Source: a virus
DNA length: 43,889 bases
IMG/VR virus record: IMGVR_UViG_3300006155_000030
Reading direction: 5' to 3' (one strand)
This document shows positions 4,125-33,031 of the stretch, piece by piece. Numbering within the stretch: the first letter of the stretch is position 1; every line of letters starts with the position of its first letter. The notes beneath the pieces are model-generated. The model made no database searches, was not told where the DNA came from, and saw nothing but the letters and a program-made list of their open reading frames with translations. Made by a program: the position numbers and the translations under genes.

Positions 4125-4640
4125 CTATATATTCTTAAAACTTTTTCTTATAGCAGCCAACCTTATTGCTTCTGGTTTTACACCAAATCTTTTTGCTAAC
4201 TGTGTTGTATTATAATTCTCTCTGTGATTATCATATAAATCTCTTATAATCAAAACGTCCTCGTTTTTCAATTTTGACTTATGGCTTTCTTCTCCAGATT
4301 TAACCATGCCATGTTCTACCGCATGTATTATATTTTCTTGATTTGTACACCATTCCAAATTATCAACACAATTATTTAGGATATTTCCGTCTATATGATT
4401 CACCATTGGCTTTCCAAGCTCATTTTCAATAAACGTTTCGGCAACAGCTTTATGGACTTTGATTGTTTTCTTGTTTTTCTTTGAGCCAAAAGTACCAGAA
4501 AAAGCATAATATCCTTGTGTATTAAAAGAAAGTTTTCTTATTCTTCCGTTAGTTGCATTTTTAACTCTTCCTTTGTTGGAAATTAAGTAATAATCTCCCA
4601 AATCCTTACCTTGATAGATAAGTCTTCTCCATTCCTCCAT
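4125..4640 (-). CDS. HNH homing endonuclease (NUMOD4 + HNH_3 type)
   Basis: 171 aa. WRRL..YYLISNKGRVKN (NUMOD4-like) is followed by VNHIDGNILNNCVDNLEWCTNQENIIHA (HNH_3 motif). SD GGAGGGATTATG. A/T-rich relative to its neighbours. Confidence 0.8.
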   Translation of the reverse strand: MEEWRRLIYQGKDLGDYYLISNKGRVKNATNGRIRKLSFNTQGYYAFSGTFGSKKNKKTIKVHKAVAETFIENELGKPMVNHIDGNILNNCVDNLEWCTNQENIIHAVEHGMVKSGEESHKSKLKNEDVLIIRDLYDNHRENYNTTQLAKRFGVKPEAIRLAAIRKSFKNI

Positions 4641-4675: not shown

Positions 4676-4790
4676 TTGGAAGAATGGATTTGAACCATTA
4701 CCTAATAGCGTGCTCCCAACAGTCATAGAACGGAATCGAACCGCGATAACGTATCGTGCTCCCAATTACACCACTTCCAAACCTAATCTT
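4676..4790 (-). ncRNA. composite tRNA-like element T4
   Basis: TTGGAAG-TG-GTGT/AATTGGGA/GCAC-G-[54 nt]-AATGG/TTCAAAT/CCATT-CTTCCAA. The 54-nt insert contains a second TTGGGAGCACG (D-arm duplicate), a CGATA/CGT/TATCG hairpin and a second GGTTCGATTCC box. Confidence 0.5.
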
Positions 4791-5233: not shown

Positions 5234-5779
5234 TTACATCTCTGCAATTTTCCTTGCCCAGTTCTGGATAATCTCCCTTTCCTCCCGACAGTCCGCATCC
5301 TTGAACATCTGTTTCATCATGCCATGCACGCCGGACATGAAATCTTCCAAAGCGTCAAGCATTCTGTTCTTCGTTCCATCATCCCGGCTGTTGGAGTATT
5401 CCATCTTCCGGCTACGGTACTCGTCCATGTCTGTATCATCACCAGACAGACGGGAATAGTTCGGGCGGTGAACATATCTGCCAGTGGTTGCGCTTCTGCC
5501 CCGGCGGTAAGAATTGCCGTTGTCGTAGTCGTTGGAGTAATTCCCCTCCCGGCTGTAATCGCCGTTACGGGAATACCCGCCACGCTCCCGGCTGTAATCC
5601 TCCATGTCCCGGCTGTAACCGTCCCTGGAATAACCGCCGCCGTCCTGCATCATTTCAATTTTATCCACGCCTTTCATAATCTCCACCAGCTTATAGGCGT
5701 TATCCAGGTTGGAAGAAGTCAAGCCTTTTTCCTCAATCGCTTTCAACTCTTTTTCTGCGTTTTCTCTCAATTTATGCAT
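5234..5779 (-). CDS. low-complexity protein with (G)YSR repeats
   Basis: 181 aa with SD GGGAGGGCTGATTATG. Helical ends flank a core of GGGYSRDGYSRDMEDYSRERGGYSRNGDYSREGNYS. The DNA shows repeated CCCGGCTGTAA(T/C)C units at about 5545-5625. Confidence 0.6.
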   Translation of the reverse strand: MHKLRENAEKELKAIEEKGLTSSNLDNAYKLVEIMKGVDKIEMMQDGGGYSRDGYSRDMEDYSRERGGYSRNGDYSREGNYSNDYDNGNSYRRGRSATTGRYVHRPNYSRLSGDDTDMDEYRSRKMEYSNSRDDGTKNRMLDALEDFMSGVHGMMKQMFKDADCREEREIIQNWARKIAEM

Positions 5780-7044: not shown

Positions 7045-7872
7045 TTAGCAGCTACCGCAGCCATTACAGCCGTTTCCCCAACCGCCGCCGTTGAACTGTC
7101 CGCAGCAGTTTGTCGGGAAAGTCACCTGCGCCGGGGGCTGCACGACATATGCCGGAATCGGGCAGTCGTTGCCAGTTCTGCGGATAATCTGCGCTGTGTT
7201 TGCGTCCATAGCTGCCATAAGGGTAGCGTTCTGTGCTGCCTGGCTTGCCTGAAGCTGTAACGCCTGAATCTGGGCAGCCTGCTCTGCGATTTTCTCATTC
7301 TTTGCGTCAATCTTCTCCTGGCACAAATAGTCAAGAATCGCCCTGGTGTTGCTGTTCTGGCTTTCCAGAATATCCCTGGTGCTGTTGTTCATCTGGTTAG
7401 TGATTGCACAGGTATTTGTCGCCATATTGTAATTTACGCCGTCAATCGCGCGCTGCGTCTGGCAGCAACAATCAGAAAGCTGGCTGGACAAGTTGCAGAA
7501 TCCACGCTCTACGCCGTTGAATCCCTGCATCATGCCCATCTGCGTGCTGTTAAATCCGCTGTTTACTGCGTTTGTCAGTGCGTATGTACTGTCGCAGATA
7601 CCCTGCTGAATAGCTGTAATTCCACTCTGCAGATTGTTGAGGGCGAGTCCCTCGTTGATGTCTGCTCTTGTTGCCAATCCCTGCAAACCTGCGCCGTTTG
7701 CTCCACCGCCGAAGCCACCGCCCCAGCCACCGAAGCCGCCCCAGCCGAACATACCGAAGATAAGGAAAAGGATAATCCATGCTCCCCAATCTCCGCCCCA
7801 GCCACCGTTGTTGTTATTCCCGGTTCCGGCCGGCTCTACATTCATAGTAATAGGTACTCCTGATTCCATCAT
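7045..7872 (-). CDS. Gly/Trp-rich membrane-anchored, Cys-rich protein
   Basis: 275 aa with SD AAAGGAGTAAGAAACATG. GGWGGDWGAWIILFLIFGMFGWGGFGGWGGGFGGG forms a TM-like segment. Then come a Q/N/A-rich helical region with scattered Cys (incl. CCC) and the C-terminus NCCGQFNGGGWGNGCNGCGSC. Confidence 0.65.
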   Translation of the reverse strand: MMESGVPITMNVEPAGTGNNNNGGWGGDWGAWIILFLIFGMFGWGGFGGWGGGFGGGANGAGLQGLATRADINEGLALNNLQSGITAIQQGICDSTYALTNAVNSGFNSTQMGMMQGFNGVERGFCNLSSQLSDCCCQTQRAIDGVNYNMATNTCAITNQMNNSTRDILESQNSNTRAILDYLCQEKIDAKNEKIAEQAAQIQALQLQASQAAQNATLMAAMDANTAQIIRRTGNDCPIPAYVVQPPAQVTFPTNCCGQFNGGGWGNGCNGCGSC

Positions 7873-8858: not shown

Positions 8859-9119
8859 TTATTGTCCGTATTTTTCGCAATATTTTTTGAAATACACATC
8901 TCTCAATGGTAGGACTTTGATAATTTTGTCTGTAACAGATTTAGAAAGATCGCTGATTTTTGTCATACCATAACCCGTTTGTCCTGCAATTTCCTCAAGG
9001 CTCATACCGTCCCCCTCATTTCTTAAATCAAAGAACATAGATTCGTCCGGCGTAAAATTGCACTCATTTCTAAAAAGTTCCAATTCCCATTTAACAAAAC
9101 CTTCTACTTTCTTCTTCAT
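8859..9119 (-). CDS. small HTH protein (sigma-70 region-4-like), putative regulator
   Basis: 86 aa. MSLEEIAGQTGYGMTKISDLSKSVTDKI looks like a region-4/LuxR-type HTH. Followed by a strong terminator. Confidence 0.45.
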   Translation of the reverse strand: MKKKVEGFVKWELELFRNECNFTPDESMFFDLRNEGDGMSLEEIAGQTGYGMTKISDLSKSVTDKIIKVLPLRDVYFKKYCEKYGQ

Positions 9120-9142
9120 ACAGACACTACTTTCTCTTTTTC

Positions 9143-9412
9143 TTAGTTCCCTTGCTGCTTCCCTTCTTTTTCACCCGTGCTTTCTGCCCCATTGTATACG
9201 TCACCTCCGACTTCATGATTAAAGTAATTGTATCCTTCTCCGTCCTGCGACACATAATCGTAAGACTGGAATACATACAGCCATACCATATTAGTTCCAA
9301 CCAGCAGGACGATTAGCAAGATAATCACGATCCACATTATTTTAAGTTGCTTAACCAGTGCGCCTAATACGTCTGTGGCGCTGTTTTCTTTTACATTATC
9401 CCTATTTTCCAT
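9143..9412 (-). CDS. single-pass membrane protein
   Basis: Start at ATG 9412 (MENRDNVKENS...). TM segment IMWIVIILLIVLLVGTNMVWLYVF. Confidence 0.5.
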   Translation of the reverse strand: MENRDNVKENSATDVLGALVKQLKIMWIVIILLIVLLVGTNMVWLYVFQSYDYVSQDGEGYNYFNHEVGGDVYNGAESTGEKEGKQQGN

Positions 9413-9431
9413 AATCCATTTCCTTTCACCC

Positions 9432-9842
9432 TTATTTTGTATCCAAATATTCAGGAAGAACACCATCATTGAATGATTTTAAAATACTAAGCGGTATTCC
9501 TGAATGTTCGGATATTTCCTCTATCGTTCCTCGGCGGCGAACTCCGTCAATCACGCACTCCATCATTATTGGTTCTGTGTGAAAACGGTTTGGAATCCAA
9601 AAATATTCACGACCCGTTTCTTCTTTCCGCTGTCTTACCCAATCAGAAAAACACTCTTGACGCTCCCTGAATGTCATGTTTTCACAGTATTTGTCCCACG
9701 CTTGTTGATTTTCTCTCAAATATCTTTTTCCAAAGAAAATCCGTTCTCTGCTTTTCGGATTAATTACAGCATATAAACCGCCAATAAACAGACCTGGAAT
9801 CATCATAATTATAATTGATGTCAAAAATTGAATCATCCACAT
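9432..9842 (-). CDS. N-terminally membrane-anchored protein
   Basis: Start at ATG 9842 (MWMIQFLTSIIIMMIPGLFIGGLYAV) with SD GGAGGTATG. The track ORF starts at an upstream TTG. Confidence 0.5.
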   Translation of the reverse strand: MWMIQFLTSIIIMMIPGLFIGGLYAVINPKSRERIFFGKRYLRENQQAWDKYCENMTFRERQECFSDWVRQRKEETGREYFWIPNRFHTEPIMMECVIDGVRRRGTIEEISEHSGIPLSILKSFNDGVLPEYLDTK

Positions 9843-17213: not shown

Positions 17214-17672
17214 CTAATTCAAAAATTCAAATATTTCAAACATCGCTCTTGCTTTATCTATTTCTTTGTTTCTCAGTAATTTCCTAAAAGCAATCATCAT
17301 TTCAATAGTTTCATAGTCTACAAATTGCGTTGCATTTGCTGACTTCCACCACCCTTCTACTCTTGGCAGATATTTGTTTATCCCCCACGTTGCTTTTACT
17401 TTGTTGTAATATCTCCACGTCTCGTAAAGTGCTATTAAATGGGCTTCAAACGCTTCCACTTCAGAACGGTTTTCACATTCAAAATACTGGATTTCCCAAT
17501 TTTTTCCGATGCACCATTCATCACGATAAGCATGATCCATTATTCGCTTTTCTAAATCTGATTTGTATACAATACCGATATATTTTATTATCCGATCTTC
17601 TGTGTCTATGTATCTGTATACGCATGGTTTTGTGTTGTTTATTTTACCACGTCTTGTATTTATCCTTGCCAT
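17214..17672 (-). CDS. GIY-YIG-like nuclease-fold protein
   Basis: Start at ATG 17672 (MARINTRRGK...), 2 nt after the radical-SAM stop. Contains CVYRYID..IKYIGIV (GIY-YIG-like), then R and E residues (..RSEVEAFEAHLI..). The track ORF's 65-aa N-terminal extension overlaps the upstream gene. Confidence 0.5.
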   Translation of the reverse strand: MARINTRRGKINNTKPCVYRYIDTEDRIIKYIGIVYKSDLEKRIMDHAYRDEWCIGKNWEIQYFECENRSEVEAFEAHLIALYETWRYYNKVKATWGINKYLPRVEGWWKSANATQFVDYETIEMMIAFRKLLRNKEIDKARAMFEIFEFLN

Positions 17673-17673
17673 A

Positions 17674-19002
17674 TCACCACATCTTTTCCACCTTTGCATA
17701 GGTTCTGATATTTCTTGTCGGGAGAGTATCGGGCGTAAACTCCCCAAACAGCGTATCAACGTCAAAATACTTCTCAAGCGTTGCCTGTTTGACTTTCGCG
17801 CTTGCAGACTGGAATTTGCTGCTGCAAGCCAGCTTAACAATATTATCCGCATCTTTTTCAGTTCCACGCCATATAATAGCCGATTGTATCACCGTGCTAA
17901 GGCTCTCCGTTGCCATGCTCTCAACTGCCCAAATAGAATTGCCCTGATAGAAGATATTTCCCTTATATCTCCCATGCCCTAATTTCTTTGCGATCATTCC
18001 ACGGTAATTCATGTATGACATAGGTTTGCAGGCTAAAGGAGTTGCCGGCATTGCCCTAAACGGTGTGCTATGCAACAATATGCTGGTCTGTTTTTGCGTC
18101 TTTGACAATCCGCTGTCAACAATCCGTATATCCTCGACAAATTCCTCCCAATCCTCAAAGGTTTCAGTCGGATAGCCGATAATGTTGTAAAATTTGACCT
18201 GATGCGGTTTCTCGCACTTTGCCAAACGCTCCAAAAACTCACGCAGCATATCCCTTGTGATTTTCTTGTTGACCATGAAACGGATGCGCTCTGACAAGCC
18301 GTCAATAGCGGTAGTCCGCAACTTAACAAGGTCAACATCAATCCCGTTGTGCATATCAATCATGGCTCGCTCACGGTCAACACCGCCGTTCCACAATCCA
18401 GAATAGTTAAATTCCTCCTGCGCCGCCTGTTTCCTGTGCCATGTATAACCGCAGAATAGGCATTTGTGATTGCAGCCAATAACATCTTCGTGATATGTTT
18501 GCCCGTTATCAAGCTGTATGTCATATGGATATATGCTATCAACCTGATTGATATAATACAGCTTATCCATGCTGAAGCTTTTGGAAGATACTATATGCTC
18601 GTCAACGCACTCCTCGTTGTCCAGTATGGCTTGCGCCATCTTATCTTGTATGCCCTCCGCTCTGCCAAGCACAAAGTAATCAACGTATTGCAAGAATGGG
18701 CAGGGATTTAACACCCCTTGCCCTCCCACGCATACTTTGTAATCGCCTTTCTGCCATGTGACACGTTCCGCAATAAATTCCCACCAATCGCAATCAGATG
18801 TAACGCTGTACATTACCATGTCAAATTTATGCACCGTTGCCGCACTGCAATAGTCAATGTTGGAAAATCCGGCACGCTTCAGTATGTCGCATACAACCGC
18901 CATGCCAGCGTTAAGGCGCACATTATAACATTCTTTGCTATATGTCTGCTTTGCGTACTTATTCAGCACATATATACCGATTTTAAGATTATCCTTATCC
19001 AT
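17674..19002 (-). CDS. radical SAM enzyme with N-terminal B12-binding-like domain (class B-like)
   Basis: 442 aa with CNHKCLFC (C177/C181/C184 = CxxxCxxC) after a ~170-aa Rossmann-like N-terminal region. This architecture resembles B12-binding-domain radical SAM proteins. Confidence 0.7.
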   Translation of the reverse strand: MDKDNLKIGIYVLNKYAKQTYSKECYNVRLNAGMAVVCDILKRAGFSNIDYCSAATVHKFDMVMYSVTSDCDWWEFIAERVTWQKGDYKVCVGGQGVLNPCPFLQYVDYFVLGRAEGIQDKMAQAILDNEECVDEHIVSSKSFSMDKLYYINQVDSIYPYDIQLDNGQTYHEDVIGCNHKCLFCGYTWHRKQAAQEEFNYSGLWNGGVDRERAMIDMHNGIDVDLVKLRTTAIDGLSERIRFMVNKKITRDMLREFLERLAKCEKPHQVKFYNIIGYPTETFEDWEEFVEDIRIVDSGLSKTQKQTSILLHSTPFRAMPATPLACKPMSYMNYRGMIAKKLGHGRYKGNIFYQGNSIWAVESMATESLSTVIQSAIIWRGTEKDADNIVKLACSSKFQSASAKVKQATLEKYFDVDTLFGEFTPDTLPTRNIRTYAKVEKMW

Positions 19003-19010
19003 GTTTCACC

Positions 19011-19484
19011 TCAAATCTGAAACTCAAAACCGCACTTAGGGCAGTGGCATGTCTTCATTTCTTTTTCCGGCTCCGGCTTGCTATCGTCCAAATCAAGCGC
19101 TAAATCGTCCTCCGGCATATCCATTTCTGCAAATCCAAAATCCGACATATCGAGGTCAAATATCCCGTCCAGCTCGTCAGCAAGCAAATCCATATCCCAT
19201 TGAGAGGATTCGCCCACCTTGTTATCCACCAGGCGGAACGCTCTAATCTGTTCTTCTGTCAAATCATCAGCCACGATGCAGGGCACGGTTTCCATTTTCA
19301 GTTTGACTGCTGCTTTATATCTCGTATGCCCTGCAACAATCACGCCGTTGCTATCAATCACAATCGGAACTTTAAAGCCAAATTGCGATATGCTATTAGC
19401 CACATAATCCACGGATTTATCGTTTTTACGCGGATTGTTTTCATATGGTGTTAAATCATTTATTTTTTTCTCTATTATCTGCAT
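19011..19484 (-). CDS. ParB N-terminal (ParB/Srx nuclease-like) domain protein with C-terminal zinc ribbon
   Basis: 157 aa. Contains YENNPRKN and GHTRYKAA motifs of ParBc, an acidic linker DLDMSDFGF, then CHCPKCG. SD AAAGGTGATAATATG. Confidence 0.8.
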   Translation of the reverse strand: MQIIEKKINDLTPYENNPRKNDKSVDYVANSISQFGFKVPIVIDSNGVIVAGHTRYKAAVKLKMETVPCIVADDLTEEQIRAFRLVDNKVGESSQWDMDLLADELDGIFDLDMSDFGFAEMDMPEDDLALDLDDSKPEPEKEMKTCHCPKCGFEFQI

Positions 19485-19623: not shown

Positions 19624-20496
19624 TTAGATGCTAGATTTATGATTTTGGCATTCCATACCACATTTATTTTCTGTCGCCTTTATCATAATTTCGTCTATTG
19701 GCATTGAGAGGTAATCGTATTGATTGGAGCAGTTCGCATATGCTGCATCAGAACATCCGAAAGTCATGCCATCACATCGAATAAATAAAGTGCCGTACCA
19801 TGAGTTACACGCGAAATGAGGAGAATACCAAACATGATTATTGATATTTGGGTCATAACTTTTTTCAAACGCAAAATTTTTATAAAACATTGGTATTCTA
19901 AGAGCTGTTTTTCCCTTTGTTAATTTCGGTATTAAACGTTTGCAAAAATCTCTGTATTCATTATCTTCCATAATTAAATCATATCGCATTTTTGCTGCAC
20001 CCTGCGGGTAAATCGGATTAACAATTACAGAAATTCCATCATTTGATAAATCTATTATTTCACGCATTGCATCTTCGATGTTATTTTTGGAAACATTTTC
20101 GACTATTTCAATTTCGCAATTTCCAATAAATCCGCTCAAATCTGGTAAATTAGTTCCTGGATCGTGCGAAATTCTAAATCTATTGAAATTGTGAGATAGT
20201 ATATCTGATTTATATTTTTGCAGATTTATACCATTACTGAGAAAAGCTAACCCGTTCGGCATCTTATTCCAGGTGGAACTCAAATAATCCAACAGCAAAA
20301 ACATTTCTTCGTCATACAATGGTTCTTTTCCGAAAAAATATAACAAAAGGTTATGAGGTTCTGGAAAATCTTTTTTTATTTTATCTATAATTTTACATTT
20401 CTGTTCAAATGACAATTCCCTATACCTACAATCACCTACAAAACAATATTCACAATTTTTATTGCATTTATCGTTAAATCCCCATGATATTATCAT
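19624..20496 (-). CDS. radical SAM enzyme with C-terminal Cys-rich (SPASM/twitch-like) region
   Basis: 290 aa with CNKNCEYC at residues 11-18 and C-terminal ..ACNSWYGTLFIRCDGMTFGCSDAAYANC..CGMECQNH. Markedly A/T-rich DNA. First gene after the late promoter at 20549-20582. Confidence 0.75.
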   Translation of the reverse strand: MIISWGFNDKCNKNCEYCFVGDCRYRELSFEQKCKIIDKIKKDFPEPHNLLLYFFGKEPLYDEEMFLLLDYLSSTWNKMPNGLAFLSNGINLQKYKSDILSHNFNRFRISHDPGTNLPDLSGFIGNCEIEIVENVSKNNIEDAMREIIDLSNDGISVIVNPIYPQGAAKMRYDLIMEDNEYRDFCKRLIPKLTKGKTALRIPMFYKNFAFEKSYDPNINNHVWYSPHFACNSWYGTLFIRCDGMTFGCSDAAYANCSNQYDYLSMPIDEIMIKATENKCGMECQNHKSSI

Positions 20497-22632: not shown

Positions 22633-23073
22633 CTACTTTATCTCCTTAATCAAAACCTCAATCCGTGGATTTTCCCTGTCCACTTCAAACCTGTCGGAAA
22701 ATCCGACAACATGCTTCCAGCCATCATCTTTTAATACCCCGGTACTCACAAGTGCATCCTGGATCACTTTCCTACCAAATGACGAAATATTATCCTTATC
22801 GCGCCGCTTACTCGGTTCCACCCAAAGATATTCCATGAATACCGGTTTCTCAATCCTCACGCCCCTAAAACACTGCCTGATTGCCGCCGCAACGATTTTT
22901 CCGCTGTCCGCTTTCATTTTAGCCCCTTTGTGGCGGTTCGTGCGTTCTGCAGCTATGTAGTCATTCAGGTTTGGCAGTGTGCCGGGTATTGTCAGCTTGT
23001 ACTCCACATAAGTCCTCCTTTCCGGCGGCAGAGACCAACCCGCCGCCGATTCCGTGATATATCGCATGAACAA
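22633..23073 (-). CDS. rusA: RusA-family Holliday junction resolvase
   Basis: 146 aa. The pattern (..PNLNDYIAAERTNRHKGAKMK.., ..RRDKDNISSFGRKVIQDAL..) matches the RusA family as recalled. Located in the recombination module. Confidence 0.7.
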   Translation of the reverse strand: MFMRYITESAAGWSLPPERRTYVEYKLTIPGTLPNLNDYIAAERTNRHKGAKMKADSGKIVAAAIRQCFRGVRIEKPVFMEYLWVEPSKRRDKDNISSFGRKVIQDALVSTGVLKDDGWKHVVGFSDRFEVDRENPRIEVLIKEIK

Positions 23074-23093
23074 ATACTACGGTTGATAGTTAC

Positions 23094-24008
23094 CTACAAT
23101 CTCTGTATATGCAACCTGTATTCTGTCCGTTCTGGCACCGTATAGGATTTCTTCTGTATGCACTTTCTCTGCACCAGATAATCTCCAGTAATAACCTTCT
23201 CGCGCTCTCCGACCTTGCTTTTTATAGCCTTGTCAACCTCACTGTGTTCTTCAACATACTTTTTCAAATCGTATTTTCGCGAAATCAAGTCGTTCAGTTC
23301 ACCATCCAATTCCACATCCGGCTCAACACCCTTGTGTATGCCGCAGATATGTGCTAACTTACAGCCTTCACACATCGCCATGTCTTCCACTGCATCCGGC
23401 TCTTTCTTATCCTCTATAGCCTTGTAAATCCGTTCTGCCTTTTTCAAAAGTCCGTCTGCCATATCCCAGTCAAAGTCCATGCGTATCATTTTGGTTTCTC
23501 CTGTCAATTTGTTTGTAAGAGCGAAAAATCCGTACATCTTACCAAAGTGATACATATAAATCTGAAGCTGCGCTGGATACTGCCGGATGTAATACCGTTT
23601 TGAGTGCAAGAAATCCTCTACCGTGTTCAGCTTGTCAAACTCAAACGGGGATATACCCTTGACCTCGACAGGGATCAGTTCCCCGTTCTCATCCTTAATG
23701 CGCAAATCTTCCCTACCAGTAATCAGCGGGTTTTCTATCTGAAAACTCCACTGTGTCGGTGTTATGACTTCATAACCGGCCTCTTTCAGGTTGTTGATCG
23801 TATGCGTCTCCAACGTGTTCCCCAAGTCAAACACATTCTGCAAGCCCACATCGTGCGGCTGCTGTTCCTCCCACCGCGTAATCAGCAAATACAAATACCT
23901 TTCACATGGATGCCCTATATTTGACGCCCTCAAATTCCGGCATGGATATACCTTTATCTTCGCCTCTTTCGCCGCCGAAAGCCTTTCATTAATTTCCTGT
24001 GCTGTCAT
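23094..24008 (-). CDS. PD-(D/E)XK exonuclease, Cas4/RecB-like with Cys cluster
   Basis: 304 aa. Contains GREDLRIKD...IPVEVKG (D..EVK core), an N-terminal Cys (GHPCERY) and C-terminal CEGCKLAHIC, i.e. a Cas4-like Fe-S arrangement. Confidence 0.75.
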   Translation of the reverse strand: MTAQEINERLSAAKEAKIKVYPCRNLRASNIGHPCERYLYLLITRWEEQQPHDVGLQNVFDLGNTLETHTINNLKEAGYEVITPTQWSFQIENPLITGREDLRIKDENGELIPVEVKGISPFEFDKLNTVEDFLHSKRYYIRQYPAQLQIYMYHFGKMYGFFALTNKLTGETKMIRMDFDWDMADGLLKKAERIYKAIEDKKEPDAVEDMAMCEGCKLAHICGIHKGVEPDVELDGELNDLISRKYDLKKYVEEHSEVDKAIKSKVGEREKVITGDYLVQRKCIQKKSYTVPERTEYRLHIQRL

Positions 24009-24750
24009 TCGTACCGCCTCCCGCAGACGCTACTTTTTGGCAATCCATACAGTACATGTGACCGTCATAACGGCTCTGTGAGTAAGATGCTACTTTCTGA
24101 CTGATAGACGCGCCACATTTCTCACATTTTAAGCCGGAATCTGCCGCTTTGCTTGCGCCGCCTTTTCCTCCGTCCTTAAAGGTATAACCCTTAATCTTTC
24201 CCGTATCAATTCCAGCTTCCTCAAGCGTCCTAGCATCAATACCACGAAGACCGGGGATGATACGCTTGATACCGTTATTAATGCAGTTTGTGTACGCTGC
24301 CTGGCGTACGTTTCTTTCAGAGATTTCATCCACGGGCTTTCTTGCGTCCGGCTTGCCGCCAAAGAAATCATCCTTCATGCTGCGGCTTCCTTCGCACTCA
24401 ATAAACTGACCGCGCATCTCGAACCGCCCTTTATATGTAAAAGTCTTGTAACCCTCTGTGTCGCACTCAATCTTAGGCTCTCCAATTTTCCAGCTTATGC
24501 CAAACAGCCGCGCTACCTTTGTTGCGCCAGACTCTTGCAAATATGGCTTGCCGCCGATCAGCGTCCAGTCATGCTCTGATGTAATCTTAAGCGCTGCTGA
24601 CATGATCTTGTTCATGGCGGTAATCATCTTGTCCGCCTTTTCTGCAAGATACATAATATTATCTGTAGATGTATCCAGAATCCCCGTGCTGCGGTCCCCT
24701 GCGTCCATAGCCTGCATAGGCTCCATAATTTCAATACTTGTGTTATCCAT
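23989..24750 (-). CDS. putative single-strand annealing/recombination protein with C-terminal zinc ribbon
   Basis: 253 aa directly upstream of the exonuclease, the classic exo + annealase pairing. The C-terminus has CEKCG...CMDCQ. Family not identified by eye. Confidence 0.45.
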   Translation of the reverse strand: MDNTSIEIMEPMQAMDAGDRSTGILDTSTDNIMYLAEKADKMITAMNKIMSAALKITSEHDWTLIGGKPYLQESGATKVARLFGISWKIGEPKIECDTEGYKTFTYKGRFEMRGQFIECEGSRSMKDDFFGGKPDARKPVDEISERNVRQAAYTNCINNGIKRIIPGLRGIDARTLEEAGIDTGKIKGYTFKDGGKGGASKAADSGLKCEKCGASISQKVASYSQSRYDGHMYCMDCQKVASAGGGTNDSTGN

Positions 24751-28023: not shown

Positions 28024-28179
28024 AAGAAAAAACCGCCCGGCGCTACCAACACCGAACGGCTTACATAGATACCAGAAGATGATACCTACAACCCAAAAAT
28101 ATTGTATCATCTTCGGGGGCGGCTTGCAAGCGGATTTCCCGCAGGCTGTTATTTTTTTACAAAAAAGGAGGATGATACC

Positions 28180-29214
28180 ATGGCAACAGCAAAAAAACTA
28201 CCGTCCGGCAACTGGCGCTGCCAAGTCTACGATTACACGGACGGAGCTGGGAAACGGCATTACAAGTCCTTTACGGCCGCCACGAAAAGGGGAGCGGAGC
28301 ATCTGGCCGCAGAATACGCCGACACAAAAAAGGAGCGGCCGCAGCCGCTTAAGGTGACAGTGGGCAAGGCGCTGGATAATTATATCAATATCAAAAGCAA
28401 TGTATTATCCCCCAGCACGGTAAGGGGGTACCGCGCGATGAGAAGCAGCAACTATTCCGATATCGAAGATATCCTGCTGGAAGACCTCACGCAGGAAGTG
28501 GTGCAGATATGGGCAAACTCCTTGGCTGCAAAGAAAAATGCCAAAACGGTTAAAAACGCCCATGGGCTGCTGTCGGCCATGCTCTCCGTGTATATGCCAG
28601 ATTTCATGCTCCGTACCGCCCTTCCGAAAAAGCAGAAGGAAGTGCCGTACATACCAACAGAAAGCGATATAAGGCTCATAATGGAGTTTTTCAAGGAAAA
28701 GGATACAGAAATGCTTAAGGCGGTTTACCTGGCCGCGTTCGGCACGCTGCGGCGTTCAGAGATATGCGGGTTGACCGGGGAAGATATAGAGGGGAATGTG
28801 ATCCACGTCCACTCGGCTGTTGTTATGGATGATTCGGCTAACTGGATCAAAAAAAATACAAAAACATCTTCCAGCGACAGATATATACCTCTTCCAGATT
28901 TCGTAATCGATGCGCTGCCAAAAAGCGGCAATGTAGTTCTAATTGAACCTTCCAAAATATCTGCACGGTTTTCGTCCGCATTGAAAAGACTTTCCATACC
29001 TCATTTCCGCTTCCATGATTTGCGCCATTATTCGGCCAGCATCATGCACGCGATCGGCATCCCGGATCAATATATCATGCAGCGGGGCGGTTGGAGTTCG
29101 GATGGGGTTTTAAAATCAATTTACCGCAATACCATGGACGATTACGCCAAAAAATTTAGCAGCCAGATCAACGATTATTTTAAAAATGCAACACAAAATA
29201 TCACACAAGAATAG
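28180..29214 (+). CDS. int: tyrosine integrase
   Basis: Start at ATG 28180 (MATAKKLPSGNWRCQVY) with SD AAAAGGAGGA. The C-terminal catalytic region is LRRSE..HFRFHDLRHY..GGWSS..LKSIYRN (R..HxxR..Y). Confidence 0.9.
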   Translation: MATAKKLPSGNWRCQVYDYTDGAGKRHYKSFTAATKRGAEHLAAEYADTKKERPQPLKVTVGKALDNYINIKSNVLSPSTVRGYRAMRSSNYSDIEDILLEDLTQEVVQIWANSLAAKKNAKTVKNAHGLLSAMLSVYMPDFMLRTALPKKQKEVPYIPTESDIRLIMEFFKEKDTEMLKAVYLAAFGTLRRSEICGLTGEDIEGNVIHVHSAVVMDDSANWIKKNTKTSSSDRYIPLPDFVIDALPKSGNVVLIEPSKISARFSSALKRLSIPHFRFHDLRHYSASIMHAIGIPDQYIMQRGGWSSDGVLKSIYRNTMDDYAKKFSSQINDYFKNATQNITQE

Positions 29215-29249
29215 AAAAGTGCTATATTTAAAGCAATTCCATTCCTGTG

Positions 29250-29277
29250 TGTGTGGGTTCAAGTCCCATCTTCCGCA
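29250..29277 (+). other. attP core candidate: 3' portion of a tRNA gene (T arm + acceptor strand)
   Basis: GTGGG/TTCAAGT/CCCAT-CTTCCGC-A lies 40 nt after the int stop. No matching 5' acceptor or D arm occurs upstream, so it is a fragment, as expected for phages that integrate into a tRNA 3' end. Confidence 0.7.
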
Positions 29278-30885: not shown

Positions 30886-30955
30886 TAAGCAAGCCCTCTT
30901 TCTTCAGCGAATTCGTTAATTGTTTTAAAACCTTCCTTTTGCTGTTAATAGATAT

Positions 30956-31315
30956 TTAATTATTCAGCTGTAATGCAAATAGTCTGTTATTGCCAGATGC
31001 GTTTATGGCATAAGGTTTATCACTCCTGTTTTGCGCGGTAATCACTAACGCGTTTTGCGAGGAAAGACGTACAACATCCACGCCGTTTTGCCCTAATAAG
31101 ATGGATACATAGTTGCCTGTCGTACTAAGATTGATATGGTATACAGTATCAAGGTTATAGTTTGACATCCGATATCCGATTAGGTATAGCCCTGGCTGTA
31201 AAATTACTGTCCGGCATAATTATGTTCCAGTTGTCATGTTTGCTGGCAGAGTAATTGCATTAGTAACACTGCTAATTATTAACCTACTGTTTATGATTCC
31301 TAAATTGCTGTTTAT
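30956..31315 (-). pseudogene. silent tail-fibre C-terminal cassette C (in-frame TAA)
   Basis: It begins at repeat rC and reads INSNLGIINSRLIISSVTNAITLPANMTTGT-TAA(31220-31222)-LCRTVILQPGLYLIGYRMSNYNLDTVYHINL...LQLNN-stop. The track lists only the distal 70 aa (30956..31168). Confidence 0.6.
31301..31315 (-). repeat. cassette-boundary site rC (ATAAACAGCAATTTA)
   Basis: Plus-strand text TAAATTGCTGTTTAT, identical to rB in the opposite orientation. The degenerate copy ATAAACAGTAGGTTA follows 6 nt downstream on the minus strand. Confidence 0.85.
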
Positions 31316-31524
31316 CTCTTATTATAGAATGCTTTTATCCGTATCCCCATCCCTTCATATGGCTCACCTCCTTCCAAATACTTGTTAACGCCAAATAAGC
31401 CTGCTGTCTGGCAGGCTGTTTCATGGTTCCTATTCGCAAGCACACAGTACAGAACGCCTTTCAGTTCATCCATCCTTTTCCCTGCCATTCCAAGCAGTAC
31501 TTTGCCGATAATCTGTTCTACCAT
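31312..31524 (-). CDS. hypothetical 70-aa protein inside the rB-rC spacer
   Basis: SD GGGAGGCAGTTATG with its own extended -10 (31548-31556). The stop codon lies inside rC (AAG AGA TAA ACAGC). No recognisable motif. Confidence 0.45.
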   Translation of the reverse strand: MVEQIIGKVLLGMAGKRMDELKGVLYCVLANRNHETACQTAGLFGVNKYLEGGEPYEGMGIRIKAFYNKR

Positions 31525-31547
31525 AACTGCCTCCCGTTTTTGCTCCC

Positions 31548-31556
31548 ATTATATCA
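31548..31556 (-). promoter_or_regulatory. extended -10 promoter element (TGATATAAT)
   Basis: Minus strand TTTGATATAATGGGAGC lies about 25 nt upstream of the 31524 start. No good -35 is present. Confidence 0.4.
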
Positions 31557-31581
31557 AACAGGCAGATGGGGCGTTGGTGAG

Positions 31582-31596
31582 ATAAACAGCAATTTA
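31582..31596 (+). repeat. cassette-boundary site rB (ATAAACAGCAATTTA)
   Basis: Read directly on the plus strand. Inverted relative to rA and rC. Confidence 0.85.
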
Positions 31597-31905
31597 GCGC
31601 CTGAAGTATTAACAAACGGTATTGATTTTGAAAAATATTACCGCATCGACATAGTAATAAGAGAAGAAAGAATATCATCCGCGATTTATACAGCAAGCTT
31701 TTTAGAACCATCAAAACGTCGTTCGCAATTTTTTAGCTATATAACGCACAATCTAAACTATATGTATGCTGGTATAGCTAAAATCGAATTTATGAATGAG
31801 GGAAGTATATCCGCTACCCATAGGATGGGAATTAACCTAAATACTGGTGATCCAGCTACCAACAACTATACTATCCTTGGTATAATGGGATATAAGCATA
31901 TTTAA
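31582..31905 (+). other. silent, inverted tail-fibre C-terminal cassette B (no own start)
   Basis: Open from rB to TAA 31903-31905: INSNLAPEVLTNGIDFEKYYRIDIVIREE...NNYTILGIMGYKHI (107 aa). It converges on the fibre gene stop, 13 nt away. The only upstream ATG (31423) lacks an SD and is antisense to 31312..31524. Confidence 0.6.
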
Positions 31906-31918
31906 GATATCTGCTTTT

Positions 31919-33031
31919 CTATTTATAAATAATATAGCTGAAGGATGTGTCTATTCTGGCCGGATCAGTGTTTGCAGGGAAATAAATTTCCAAAGTGCCA
32001 GTACCCGATGAATTAGCATATATTCTGGCCGAATAGCATTTCCCATTTGTGCATTGCAATGATAAATAGTTTGTAAATAATGGTTTTGGTACACCAGTTA
32101 AAACAATATCTCCGTTTTTTACATTACTGCTGGGAGAAGTTTCAAAACTAATGTAACAAATTCTTCCAATTAAATAATAGTCTGCTCCTTTGGTAAATTT
32201 TTCTCCTTTTACTGCGGATTTCTTTGTTATTTTAGTTTCGTTTGTTAAATCGCTGTTTATTTGATCAAGCCGACTTTGCAAACTGCTTTGCTCTTCTTTC
32301 AAAACCCTTCCTGCATCTGCATCCAGCGCTACTATTCCCGGTGTATCCACAAGAAAATTATTTGCAAGTTCTGCAAATGCATGTGGTTTTAAATCCTCGC
32401 AGAATTTTGATAGCTTTGCAAAAGCAATTTCTAGGTTGTCACCTGACTGGACGTTTGCGCGTTCCGTTGCTTGCTCAAATGTAATGATTGCTTTAGAAGC
32501 ATCCCCGTCCTTTCCTAACTTTTTATTTAATTCTTCCGTTATCACTTTATTCTGCACTGGATTTGTCGATGTTGTGCTTAGTTCCGAATCGATATCAAAT
32601 CCTGCAATGGAAGCTGCCCGGTCGGCCTCATCTTTTGCCCTGTCTGCTTCGCTTTTCGACTGCTCGCTCCAATATTTGCTGTTATTTGTATCTTCTCCTT
32701 CGCGGGTGTTTGTACCGCCTACAGCCCATGATTTGGATGCAACAGACCATTCTTCCGCTTGTGTTGCATGTTGCTGTGCCAATTCTTCAAATCGCTCTAC
32801 CGCAGTCTGGATATTTTGGCAAGTCGCAAGGATGGTCTGTATTTCAATCATATCCTGCTCAAACGCTTCATATGTAGCCATTCTTCTGACAATCCCCGGC
32901 GCAAAGCACATCCAGACCTTTTTAGAATCCATGGACACCGCCCATTCGCTGGCGGTCATCTGGTCTGGGTCAAAGTTTTCTTCTGCTCCTCGCCGCATCT
33001 GCATCGTTGCTTTGATTGTCTGTATTGCCAT
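31919..33031 (-). CDS. tail fibre / receptor-binding protein (BppU-like N-terminus)
   Basis: 370 aa. The N-terminus MAIQTIKATMQMRRGAEENFDP..MTASEWAVSMDSKKVW resembles baseplate-upper/fibre N-domains. A coiled middle follows. The C-terminal 113 aa start at repeat rA (INSDL). Confidence 0.7.
   Translation of the reverse strand: MAIQTIKATMQMRRGAEENFDPDQMTASEWAVSMDSKKVWMCFAPGIVRRMATYEAFEQDMIEIQTILATCQNIQTAVERFEELAQQHATQAEEWSVASKSWAVGGTNTREGEDTNNSKYWSEQSKSEADRAKDEADRAASIAGFDIDSELSTTSTNPVQNKVITEELNKKLGKDGDASKAIITFEQATERANVQSGDNLEIAFAKLSKFCEDLKPHAFAELANNFLVDTPGIVALDADAGRVLKEEQSSLQSRLDQINSDLTNETKITKKSAVKGEKFTKGADYYLIGRICYISFETSPSSNVKNGDIVLTGVPKPLFTNYLSLQCTNGKCYSARIYANSSGTGTLEIYFPANTDPARIDTSFSYIIYK
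32246..32260 (-). repeat. cassette-boundary site rA (ATAAACAGCGATTTA) inside the expressed fibre gene
   Basis: Plus-strand text TAAATCGCTGTTTAT, covering codons 258-262 (INSDL). 14/15 identical to rB and rC. Confidence 0.85.

Follow-up and report, generated by a model that had tools for sequence, protein, structure and literature searches.

The 3' end of the tail-fibre gene in IMGVR_UViG_3300006155_000030, the complete genome of a temperate siphophage (Joint Genome Institute (JGI) 3300006151 Ga0081143_1000165), is best read as a decayed and probably locked shufflon of the Rci/Rin type, that is, a tyrosine-recombinase array built on the gene for the receptor-binding protein (RBP). We give this reading a probability of about 0.75. 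Here, "the window" means the whole stretch of DNA that was analysed (43,889 bp). The evidence consists of three copies of one short site, three alternative 3' cassettes that begin at these copies, the stump of a recombinase gene among them, and a set of related loci in which the same site occurs beside intact recombinases or has served as a point of recombination.

The site is a 15-mer, ATAAACAGC(R)ATTTA, of which the window holds exactly three copies, in the positions and on the strands that the original prediction had given. These are rA (32246-32260, minus strand; ATAAACAGCGATTTA, encoding INSDL as codons 258-262 of the expressed fibre gene), rB (31582-31596, plus strand; ATAAACAGCAATTTA), and rC (31301-31315, minus strand), the last being direct relative to rA and inverted relative to rB. 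No exact copy appeared in 100 dinucleotide-preserving shuffles, and looser copies (3 mismatches) elsewhere in the window are at chance level, with 8 found and 5.2 expected. The inverted match of rB to rC is perfect over 19 nt (GAGATAAACAGCAATTTAG; 31300-31318 and 31579-31597), while rA differs from both at core position 10 (G vs. A) and in the flanks. The flank upstream of rB, TTGGTGAG, is identical to that in the expressed genes of two relatives (loci L024 and L022). By direct reading, the core is a 14-bp imperfect dyad, TAAAY-N4-RTTTA, within which the crossover point presumably lies. Just past the stop of the third cassette there is a degenerate site-like sequence (30935-30958; a 10/15 match in either orientation), which resembles the degenerate site right behind the stop in L022 (inverted-repeat scan and direct reading) and may be the relic of a fourth site.

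Each site copy opens a cassette of ~107-119 codons at the 3' end of the fibre gene, a 370-aa open reading frame (ORF; 31919-33031, minus strand) whose codons 1-257 make up the constant 5' part (32261-33031). Cassette A (31919-32245, minus strand, stop codon included) is the expressed head domain and, when counted from rA, supplies codons 258-370. Cassette B (31597-31905, plus strand) is silent but intact, open for 107 codons from rB, and converges on A with 13 nt between the two stops; it has no start of its own, the nearest upstream ATG being 53 codons away and antisense to a 70-codon ORF described below. Cassette C (30956-31300, minus strand) is a stranded pseudogene cassette, open from rC except for a TAA at 31220-31222, and it too has no usable start. 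All of these frames and distances, including the 679 bp of the rA-rB segment, agree with what had been claimed. The further suggestion that the cassettes are diverged paralogues is unsupported at the sequence level, as pairwise comparison of A, B, and C detected no similarity beyond the site.

Each cassette has relatives in other fibres. Homologues of cassette A form the tails of the fibre proteins P0003, P0009, P0041, and P0042; a B-type tail is fused to another fibre in P0126; and cassette C is 76% identical to the expressed tail of P0017, with an intact silent homologue in L024 that has GAA where the window carries TAA. Judged by dN/dS values of 0.11 for cassette B (against the silent homologue in L001) and 0.15 for cassette C, which are approximate since dS is saturated (1.6-2.0), the silent cassettes are under purifying selection. 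A second, degenerate junction motif near rC had also been predicted, and cassette C does contain it (IINSRL, 31280-31294). All C-type cassettes carry such a motif two codons past the site, in the form IINSRL, IINSAL, or MINSTL (in L024 at ~9408-9422 and in P0017 at residues 254-260), and it is possibly the scar of an older junction.

In the AlphaFold2 (AF2) model of the window fibre, a long helix (residues 234-266) runs into the site and an all-beta domain follows (residues 268-370; predicted local distance difference test (pLDDT) 92-96). Foldseek matched the cassette A domain to the RBP heads of the lactococcal phages TP901-1 (ORF49), p2, and bIL170 (structures 4ios, 2bse, 3da0, and 2fsd; TMt 0.55-0.72, prob 1.0). 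Because the helix ends at residue 266 and a beta domain matching RBP heads begins at 268, the site falls at the stalk-head boundary of the receptor-binding protein. By this model, cassette A is an RBP head of the lactococcal-phage (TP901-1/p2) type, an assignment that holds for A only. The idea that every cassette is a receptor-binding tip is thus borne out for A, while the model of cassette B, made from a 3-sequence alignment, has a mean pLDDT of 57 and was left out of the fold search; B is presumably a functional head.

The recombinase stump lies between rB and rC. The original prediction had stated that no invertase gene is nearby, and indeed the tyrosine integrase (28102-29214) is the sole recombinase domain detected in the window. 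What it overlooked is that the 70-codon ORF (31312-31524, minus strand), with its promoter, Shine-Dalgarno sequence (SD), and terminator, is by homology the 5' stump (pseudogene) of a Xer-like tyrosine recombinase, the shufflon's own invertase. The comparison is with L080, a locus recovered by scanning IMG/VR with GAGATAAACAGCAATTTA. In a BLASTP search, the 70-aa product aligned with residues 3-31 of the 329-aa L080 recombinase (19/29 identical, 26/29 positive, E=1e-11; tblastn agrees). Homology is restricted to codons 1-29 (31438-31524), beyond which the ORF reads through the former 3' untranslated region to a TAA within rC. The stump alone matched nothing in Pfam or PHROG.

The DNA alignment carries this comparison beyond the protein, with the site, extended -10, SD, ATG, and first 29 codons all colinear between the window and L080. 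The promoter and leader of the former gene (31525-31581, minus strand; extended -10 TGATATAAT at 31548-31556, SD GGGAGG at 31530-31535) align with the region from site 3 to the recombinase start of L080, at 83% over 71 nt. At the far end, the remnant of the 3' terminator region, a hairpin AGCCTGC-N6-GCAGGCT followed by TATTTGG (31391-31417, minus strand), matches the DNA downstream of the L080 recombinase stop at 18/19 nt, and the sequence AAGAGATAAACAGCAATTTA matches L080 as well. Scans with sigma-70 and terminator consensus sequences called neither the extended -10 nor the hairpin; both are identified by homology to L080 and direct reading. Relative to L080, ~0.9 kb is absent from the window, including the whole catalytic domain. 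The stump segment is oriented, relative to the fibre, opposite to the L080 gene, as expected for a segment that is flanked by inverted sites.

The intact array in L080 consists of the fibre end, a site (+), two convergent cassettes, a site (-), the 329-aa recombinase on the opposite strand, a third site, and a further cassette. Its recombinase gene sits between the site (-) at 4685-4702 and the third site at ~5890, each of these sites opening a cassette, and the protein matches PF00589 (4e-36) and PF13495 and scores 238 bits against an NCBIfam XerA-type model (cut-off 220). Another Xer-like recombinase (339 aa; PF13495 and PF00589), ~30% identical to the first, occurs in L072-L076 among 4-5 core copies. 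When the recombinases of both relatives were compared with the window by tblastn, only the 29-codon stump was recovered, and a dedicated intact shufflon recombinase distinct from the integrase was not found in or beside the window's array. Nothing further came out of IMG/VR scans that used either recombinase (L072 or L080), the 70-aa ORF, a recombinase-leader pattern, or a pattern of back-to-back sites.

The same junction recurs throughout the fibre family. The window fibre has 459 homologues, mostly from gut metagenomes and from metagenome-assembled genomes (MAGs) or isolates of Lachnospiraceae, which share the N-terminal ~250 residues and then diverge fully past a junction of the form [IL]N[STG][NDK][LIM]; an IMG/VR scan with the fibre protein gave short, distant matches only. 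Many pairs of homologues are 94-100% identical up to the junction motif and unrelated beyond it, an example being P0079 and P0082 (100% over 326 aa). At the DNA level, convergent cassettes, one expressed and one silent, are bounded by the core TAAACAGCAATTTA in ~15 related prophage loci of the Lachnospiraceae type, and nearly every complete locus has an inverted copy of the fibre junction site ~530-760 nt downstream. The two copies in a genome vary together, lineage by lineage, the site variants being ATAAACAGCAATTTA, CTAAACAGCGATTTA, [GC]TAAATAGCAATTTA, TAGACARCAGTTTAG, TAAACACGGG.., and ATAATCAGCAATTTA (twice in L001). A silent cassette begins at the inverted copy and reads toward the expressed one; its open frame spans 84-135 codons in 11 loci, where the two stops are near one another or overlap (-11 to +23 nt). 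A cassette family that is silent in one phage may be expressed in the next: L038 expresses a cassette that resembles the silent cassette in L039, and L054 and P0105 express cassettes that match the silent one in L050.

In L022 (fibre P0003, the closest full-length relative), a degenerate inverted site (9105-9120) lies directly past the fibre stop with no silent cassette behind it, which is a further decay state of the array. In L056, a 1102-aa fibre of the same N-terminal family, the short core is replaced by a 52/56-nt inverted repeat encoding STSGLMSAADKTKLDGL (8956-9011 and 9631-9686) that flanks two convergent open cassettes; this is a different, far longer class of repeat, which might recombine homologously.

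Pairwise comparison of the relatives places exchanges exactly at the core. L032 and L038 are 100% identical through the end of the (+) site and 99.6% identical again from the (-) site onward, and between the sites they carry unrelated segments of 645 and 539 nt, each a cassette pair (10979-11623 in L032, 10979-11517 in L038). The whole two-cassette segment is likewise replaced between both inverted sites in L050 vs. L053, and both cases look like cassette exchange by double crossover at the sites. A flip is seen between L083 (fibre P0061) and L084 (fibre P0009), both of the window's own fibre family and 96% identical in their constant parts: L084 has the silent cassette of L083, together with its (-) site, in reverse orientation and in the expressed position (97% identity). 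A B-type cassette is fused to a different fibre in L066-L071, and the same 821-826 nt stand behind unrelated DNA in L072-L077 (99.6-99.9% identical to L066), with the breakpoint exactly at TTAAACAGCAATTTA.

The L066-L077 contigs carry 3-5 core copies per 2-3 kb in both orientations, with back-to-back pairs 45 nt apart, and those of the L066-L071 set end at site copies. More generally, many independent short-read contigs, such as L066-L071, stop precisely in the spacer plus a site copy, and this coincidence indicates that assemblies break at the repeat. A similar contrast of presence and absence is seen in L022 and L023, which share fibre P0003: in L022 a degenerate site and then the next gene follow, and L023 runs on at 9236-9254 into the spacer and site that belong to L073, an array with a recombinase that comes from the same metagenome (ERZ28595077). 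L023 and L073 may be one phage.

The comparison of orientations among related phages, which the original prediction had proposed, therefore has a divided outcome: relatives show flips and alternative junctions at the site, and the assemblies of the window phage itself are fixed in one state. Four of them (L061-L064) match the window at 100% identity throughout the array and express cassette A, and L003 has the same arrangement at 99.8% identity. The 66-aa neighbour protein was found on 23 contigs, and neither recombinant junction of the window, constant part to B or constant part to C, had a match in JGI metagenome contigs. Most likely, then, the array no longer switches and stays frozen in the A state. 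Cassette C, which had been counted among the alternative ends, must be taken off that list: rA and rC are direct repeats, so C cannot join the constant part by inversion with the three sites present, and C is in any case a pseudogene.

Our proposal for how the system would have worked and failed is as follows. The core (14-15 bp) encodes the last turn of the stalk helix (I/L-N-S-N/D-L) just ahead of the beta-sandwich head and is repeated, inverted, at the start of every alternative head cassette. In intact relatives, the Xer-like recombinase encoded between the sites would recombine inverted copies, flipping a segment of two convergent cassettes so that a different head is fused to the constant stalk. 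In the window, an internal deletion of ~0.9 kb would have cut the recombinase gene down to the 70-codon ORF, with the promoter, SD, first 29 codons, and terminator outlasting it. Cassette C, with its nonsense codon, is beyond the reach of inversion, and for cassette B to be used, a matching recombinase would have to come from elsewhere, in trans.

Some of the evidence weighs against so final a decay, and one should set it beside the rival view that it favours, in which the array is still an active host-range switch and rA and rB are inverted by a Xer-like shufflon recombinase acting in trans, from a co-resident prophage or the host. We regard this as unlikely, although it deserves a hearing. 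The three sites and cassette B are intact, and the persistence of rB, rC, and B is not what one would expect of a long-dead system. Most related two-cassette loci have no recombinase within 6-10 kb, yet their silent cassettes stay open and under purifying selection, which points to trans-acting recombinases or to recent, repeated loss. Assemblies report the majority orientation only, leaving room for low-level inversion; the saturation of dS softens the selection estimates given above; and it is from co-location in two loci that we infer that the Xer-like enzyme acts on the core.

A supply in trans is also made plausible by arrays on other fibre families that encode a recombinase and use the same core, so that a compatible enzyme circulates in the phage pool, and by metagenome ERZ28595077, in which a fibre contig of the orphan type and an array with a recombinase have a spacer and site in common. 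The flip between L083 and L084 occurred in a locus with no visible recombinase, although these contigs are short and L083 starts at the fibre gene, leaving its upstream side unseen. There are precedents: an orphan ~500-bp locus in tRNA-Met-integrated bifidophages (PMC6109161), for which its authors proposed a trans-acting invertase, and the trans-acting Mpi, as cited in PMC6109161 and PMC9881135. The bifidophage locus is alike in that relatives have a segment of the fibre region in opposite orientations, inverted at a short repeat, and no recombinase flanks it; it differs in its 8-bp repeat, its genes of unknown function, and the lack of any trace of a former recombinase (PMC6109161). Against an active switch stand the uniform A state of every examined assembly of the window phage, the zero count of recombinant junctions, the mismatch of rA and rB within the core (position 10), and the decay that cassette C has already undergone. 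A wider form of the idea, which we entertain only tentatively, is that the core is a shared "docking site" across many unrelated fibre families of Lachnospiraceae prophages, a minority of which carry the Xer-like recombinase; most, the window phage among them, would be orphans, and recombinases acting in trans would flip their two-cassette segments and swap them wholesale between co-resident phages by double crossover at the two inverted sites. If true, this would amount to a community-level exchange network for receptor-binding heads and not a private phase-variation switch.

Two other explanations fare worse than these. It could be argued that there is no site-specific recombination at all, INSxL being a conserved stalk-head peptide and the extra cassettes the debris of homologous-recombination mosaicism with microhomology at the junctions. 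The loose conservation of the junction peptide across the family would fit, as would L056, whose repeat is long enough for homologous recombination. We nevertheless find this very improbable. The Ser codon in the core is always AGC and the Leu codon always TTA, save for one TTG in the silent copy of L038; each makes up only ~21-22% of its codon family in the window phage, and the usage holds in ~10 lineages with flanks that are unrelated at the DNA level. Moreover, the DNA upstream of the inverted copies is non-coding, often with a stop codon immediately before the site, so peptide constraint cannot explain the repeat. Breakpoints that fall exactly at the core, Xer-like recombinase genes embedded among the sites, and start-less silent cassettes that stay open speak against it as well.

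The last explanation starts from geometry: the array recalls Mu G and P1 C, where inverted sites enclose a pair of convergent cassettes at a fibre gene's 3' end. A serine-invertase segment of that kind, or the integrase (28102-29214) doubling as invertase on the ground that it is the sole intact recombinase in the window, is to our mind scarcely credible. No serine recombinase was found in Pfam and PHROGs searches of the cassette neighbourhood and seven other ORFs, nor among the remaining translations, which were read by eye, and the enzymes adjoining the core in relatives are Xer-like tyrosine recombinases. The integrase is rejected as the invertase for being unrelated to the shufflon recombinases (an insignificant similarity of 24% over 172 aa, E=0.46) and for its att core, a tRNA 3' end that is unlike the fibre site. 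What Mu G (Gin), P1 C (Cin), and p15B Min share with the array is an inverted segment with convergent alternative fibre 3' ends, and with it the logic and geometry of a host-range switch; they differ in having serine invertases, 26-bp gix/cix sites, and a Fis-dependent enhancer. The shufflon layout originally described therefore stands as regards the constant 5' part, the single short site, and the start-less 3' cassettes in both orientations, but not as a serine segment of the Mu G or P1 C type.

A decayed tyrosine-recombinase shufflon has its closest counterpart in the Rin shufflon of Bifidobacterium prophages (Mavrich et al. 2018, PMC6109161). There, too, a temperate siphophage has an RBP gene in which the N-terminal part is constant and the C-terminal end is offered by several start-less cassettes, which are related to the TP901-1 RBP head; the crossover sites are short and asymmetric, and the Xer-like tyrosine recombinase has no arm-binding domain and is distinct from the phage integrase (PMC6109161). 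The differences lie in the site (the 11-bp rix TTCCCTAACCC vs. a core of 14-15 bp here), in the host phylum, in the placement of the recombinase gene, which in Rin flanks the array and in L080 and the window stump sits between inverted sites inside it, and in the deletion of the recombinase from the window. The BV01-like shufflon of Phocaeicola vulgatus phages (PMC13596623, a 2026 preprint) likewise belongs to a temperate gut phage and has several cassettes overlapping the distal end of a tail-fibre gene, short directional motifs, and a recombinase at its flank; unlike the present locus, it has a Bacteroidota host, a 10-bp motif (TGGGAGAACT), and activity shown by read counts, whereas the window is known from assemblies and its enzyme is deleted. 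The R64/IncI1 shufflon (Rci, sfx, pilV), taken from general knowledge and the summaries in PMC9881135, shares the tyrosine recombinase, the multiple segments of convergent cassettes, the back-to-back sites in both orientations, and the exchange of an adhesin's C-terminal tip; it differs in acting on the tip of a conjugative pilus and not on a phage fibre, in its sfx sites (a 19-bp core and an arm), and in having rci outside the shufflon. Programmed inversions are enriched in tail-fibre genes (PMC9881135), and full-text literature searches returned no description of the core site or of fibre shufflons in Lachnospiraceae phages.

Tyrosine-recombinase shufflons of tail fibres have so far been known from bifidobacterial and Bacteroidaceae phages; the present locus and its ~15 relatives would extend the strategy to Lachnospiraceae-type gut prophages, with a distinct and very widely shared core site that coincides exactly with the boundary between stalk and head in a TP901-1-like RBP. 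The window would also show how such a switch dies: only a stump is left of the recombinase, yet the sites and one spare head are still there. The stump thereby suggests an origin for the orphan state and may explain many "invertase-less" invertible fibre loci. Those who annotate genomes of this kind should keep in mind that the 70-aa and 121-160-aa "hypothetical proteins" called here are a recombinase pseudogene and a silent head cassette, respectively. The core motif could, in turn, be used to locate swappable RBP heads for host-range prediction or engineering.

The remainder of the genome is that of a temperate siphophage. On the minus strand, the gene order is tape measure, a 123-aa protein, an 874-aa tail protein (phrog_6616), the 66-aa protein, the fibre, the cassette array, holin-like genes, and a GH25 endolysin; attP, the tyrosine integrase, and a CI-like repressor follow the endolysin, the latter two on the plus strand (Pfam/PHROG searches). 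The phage is present as an integrated prophage in the MAG GCA_949472125.1. When the circular phage is compared with the integrated prophage (L062, 9950-9981), identity stops at ...CTGCGGAAGATGGGACTTGAACCCACAC (window ~29225-29251), and near window position 29251 the att core is formed by the 3' end of a tRNA gene (..GGGACTTGAACCCACAC), which extends into the host flank. Because this identity ends in the tRNA 3' end, attP can be placed between the endolysin and the integrase. DNA and protein searches of the INPHARED phage collection found no close relative.

Several other genes caught our attention. The accessory genes at 17674-19002, 19624-20496, 19011-19484, 17214-17867, and 4125-4640 comprise two radical-SAM-domain proteins, a ParB-N-like protein, a weak GIY-YIG match, and an HNH/NUMOD4 homing-endonuclease-like gene, the last of which sits within the structural region. 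A guess that the ORFs at 22633-24750 form a module of RusA, exonuclease, and single-strand annealing protein (SSAP) had no Pfam support and was dropped. Finally, there are two low-complexity ORFs on the coding strand (5234-5779 and 7045-7872), of which the translations only were read: one has YSR(D/E/N)G-type repeats, and the other has a Gly/Trp-rich N-terminus and a Cys-rich C-terminus.

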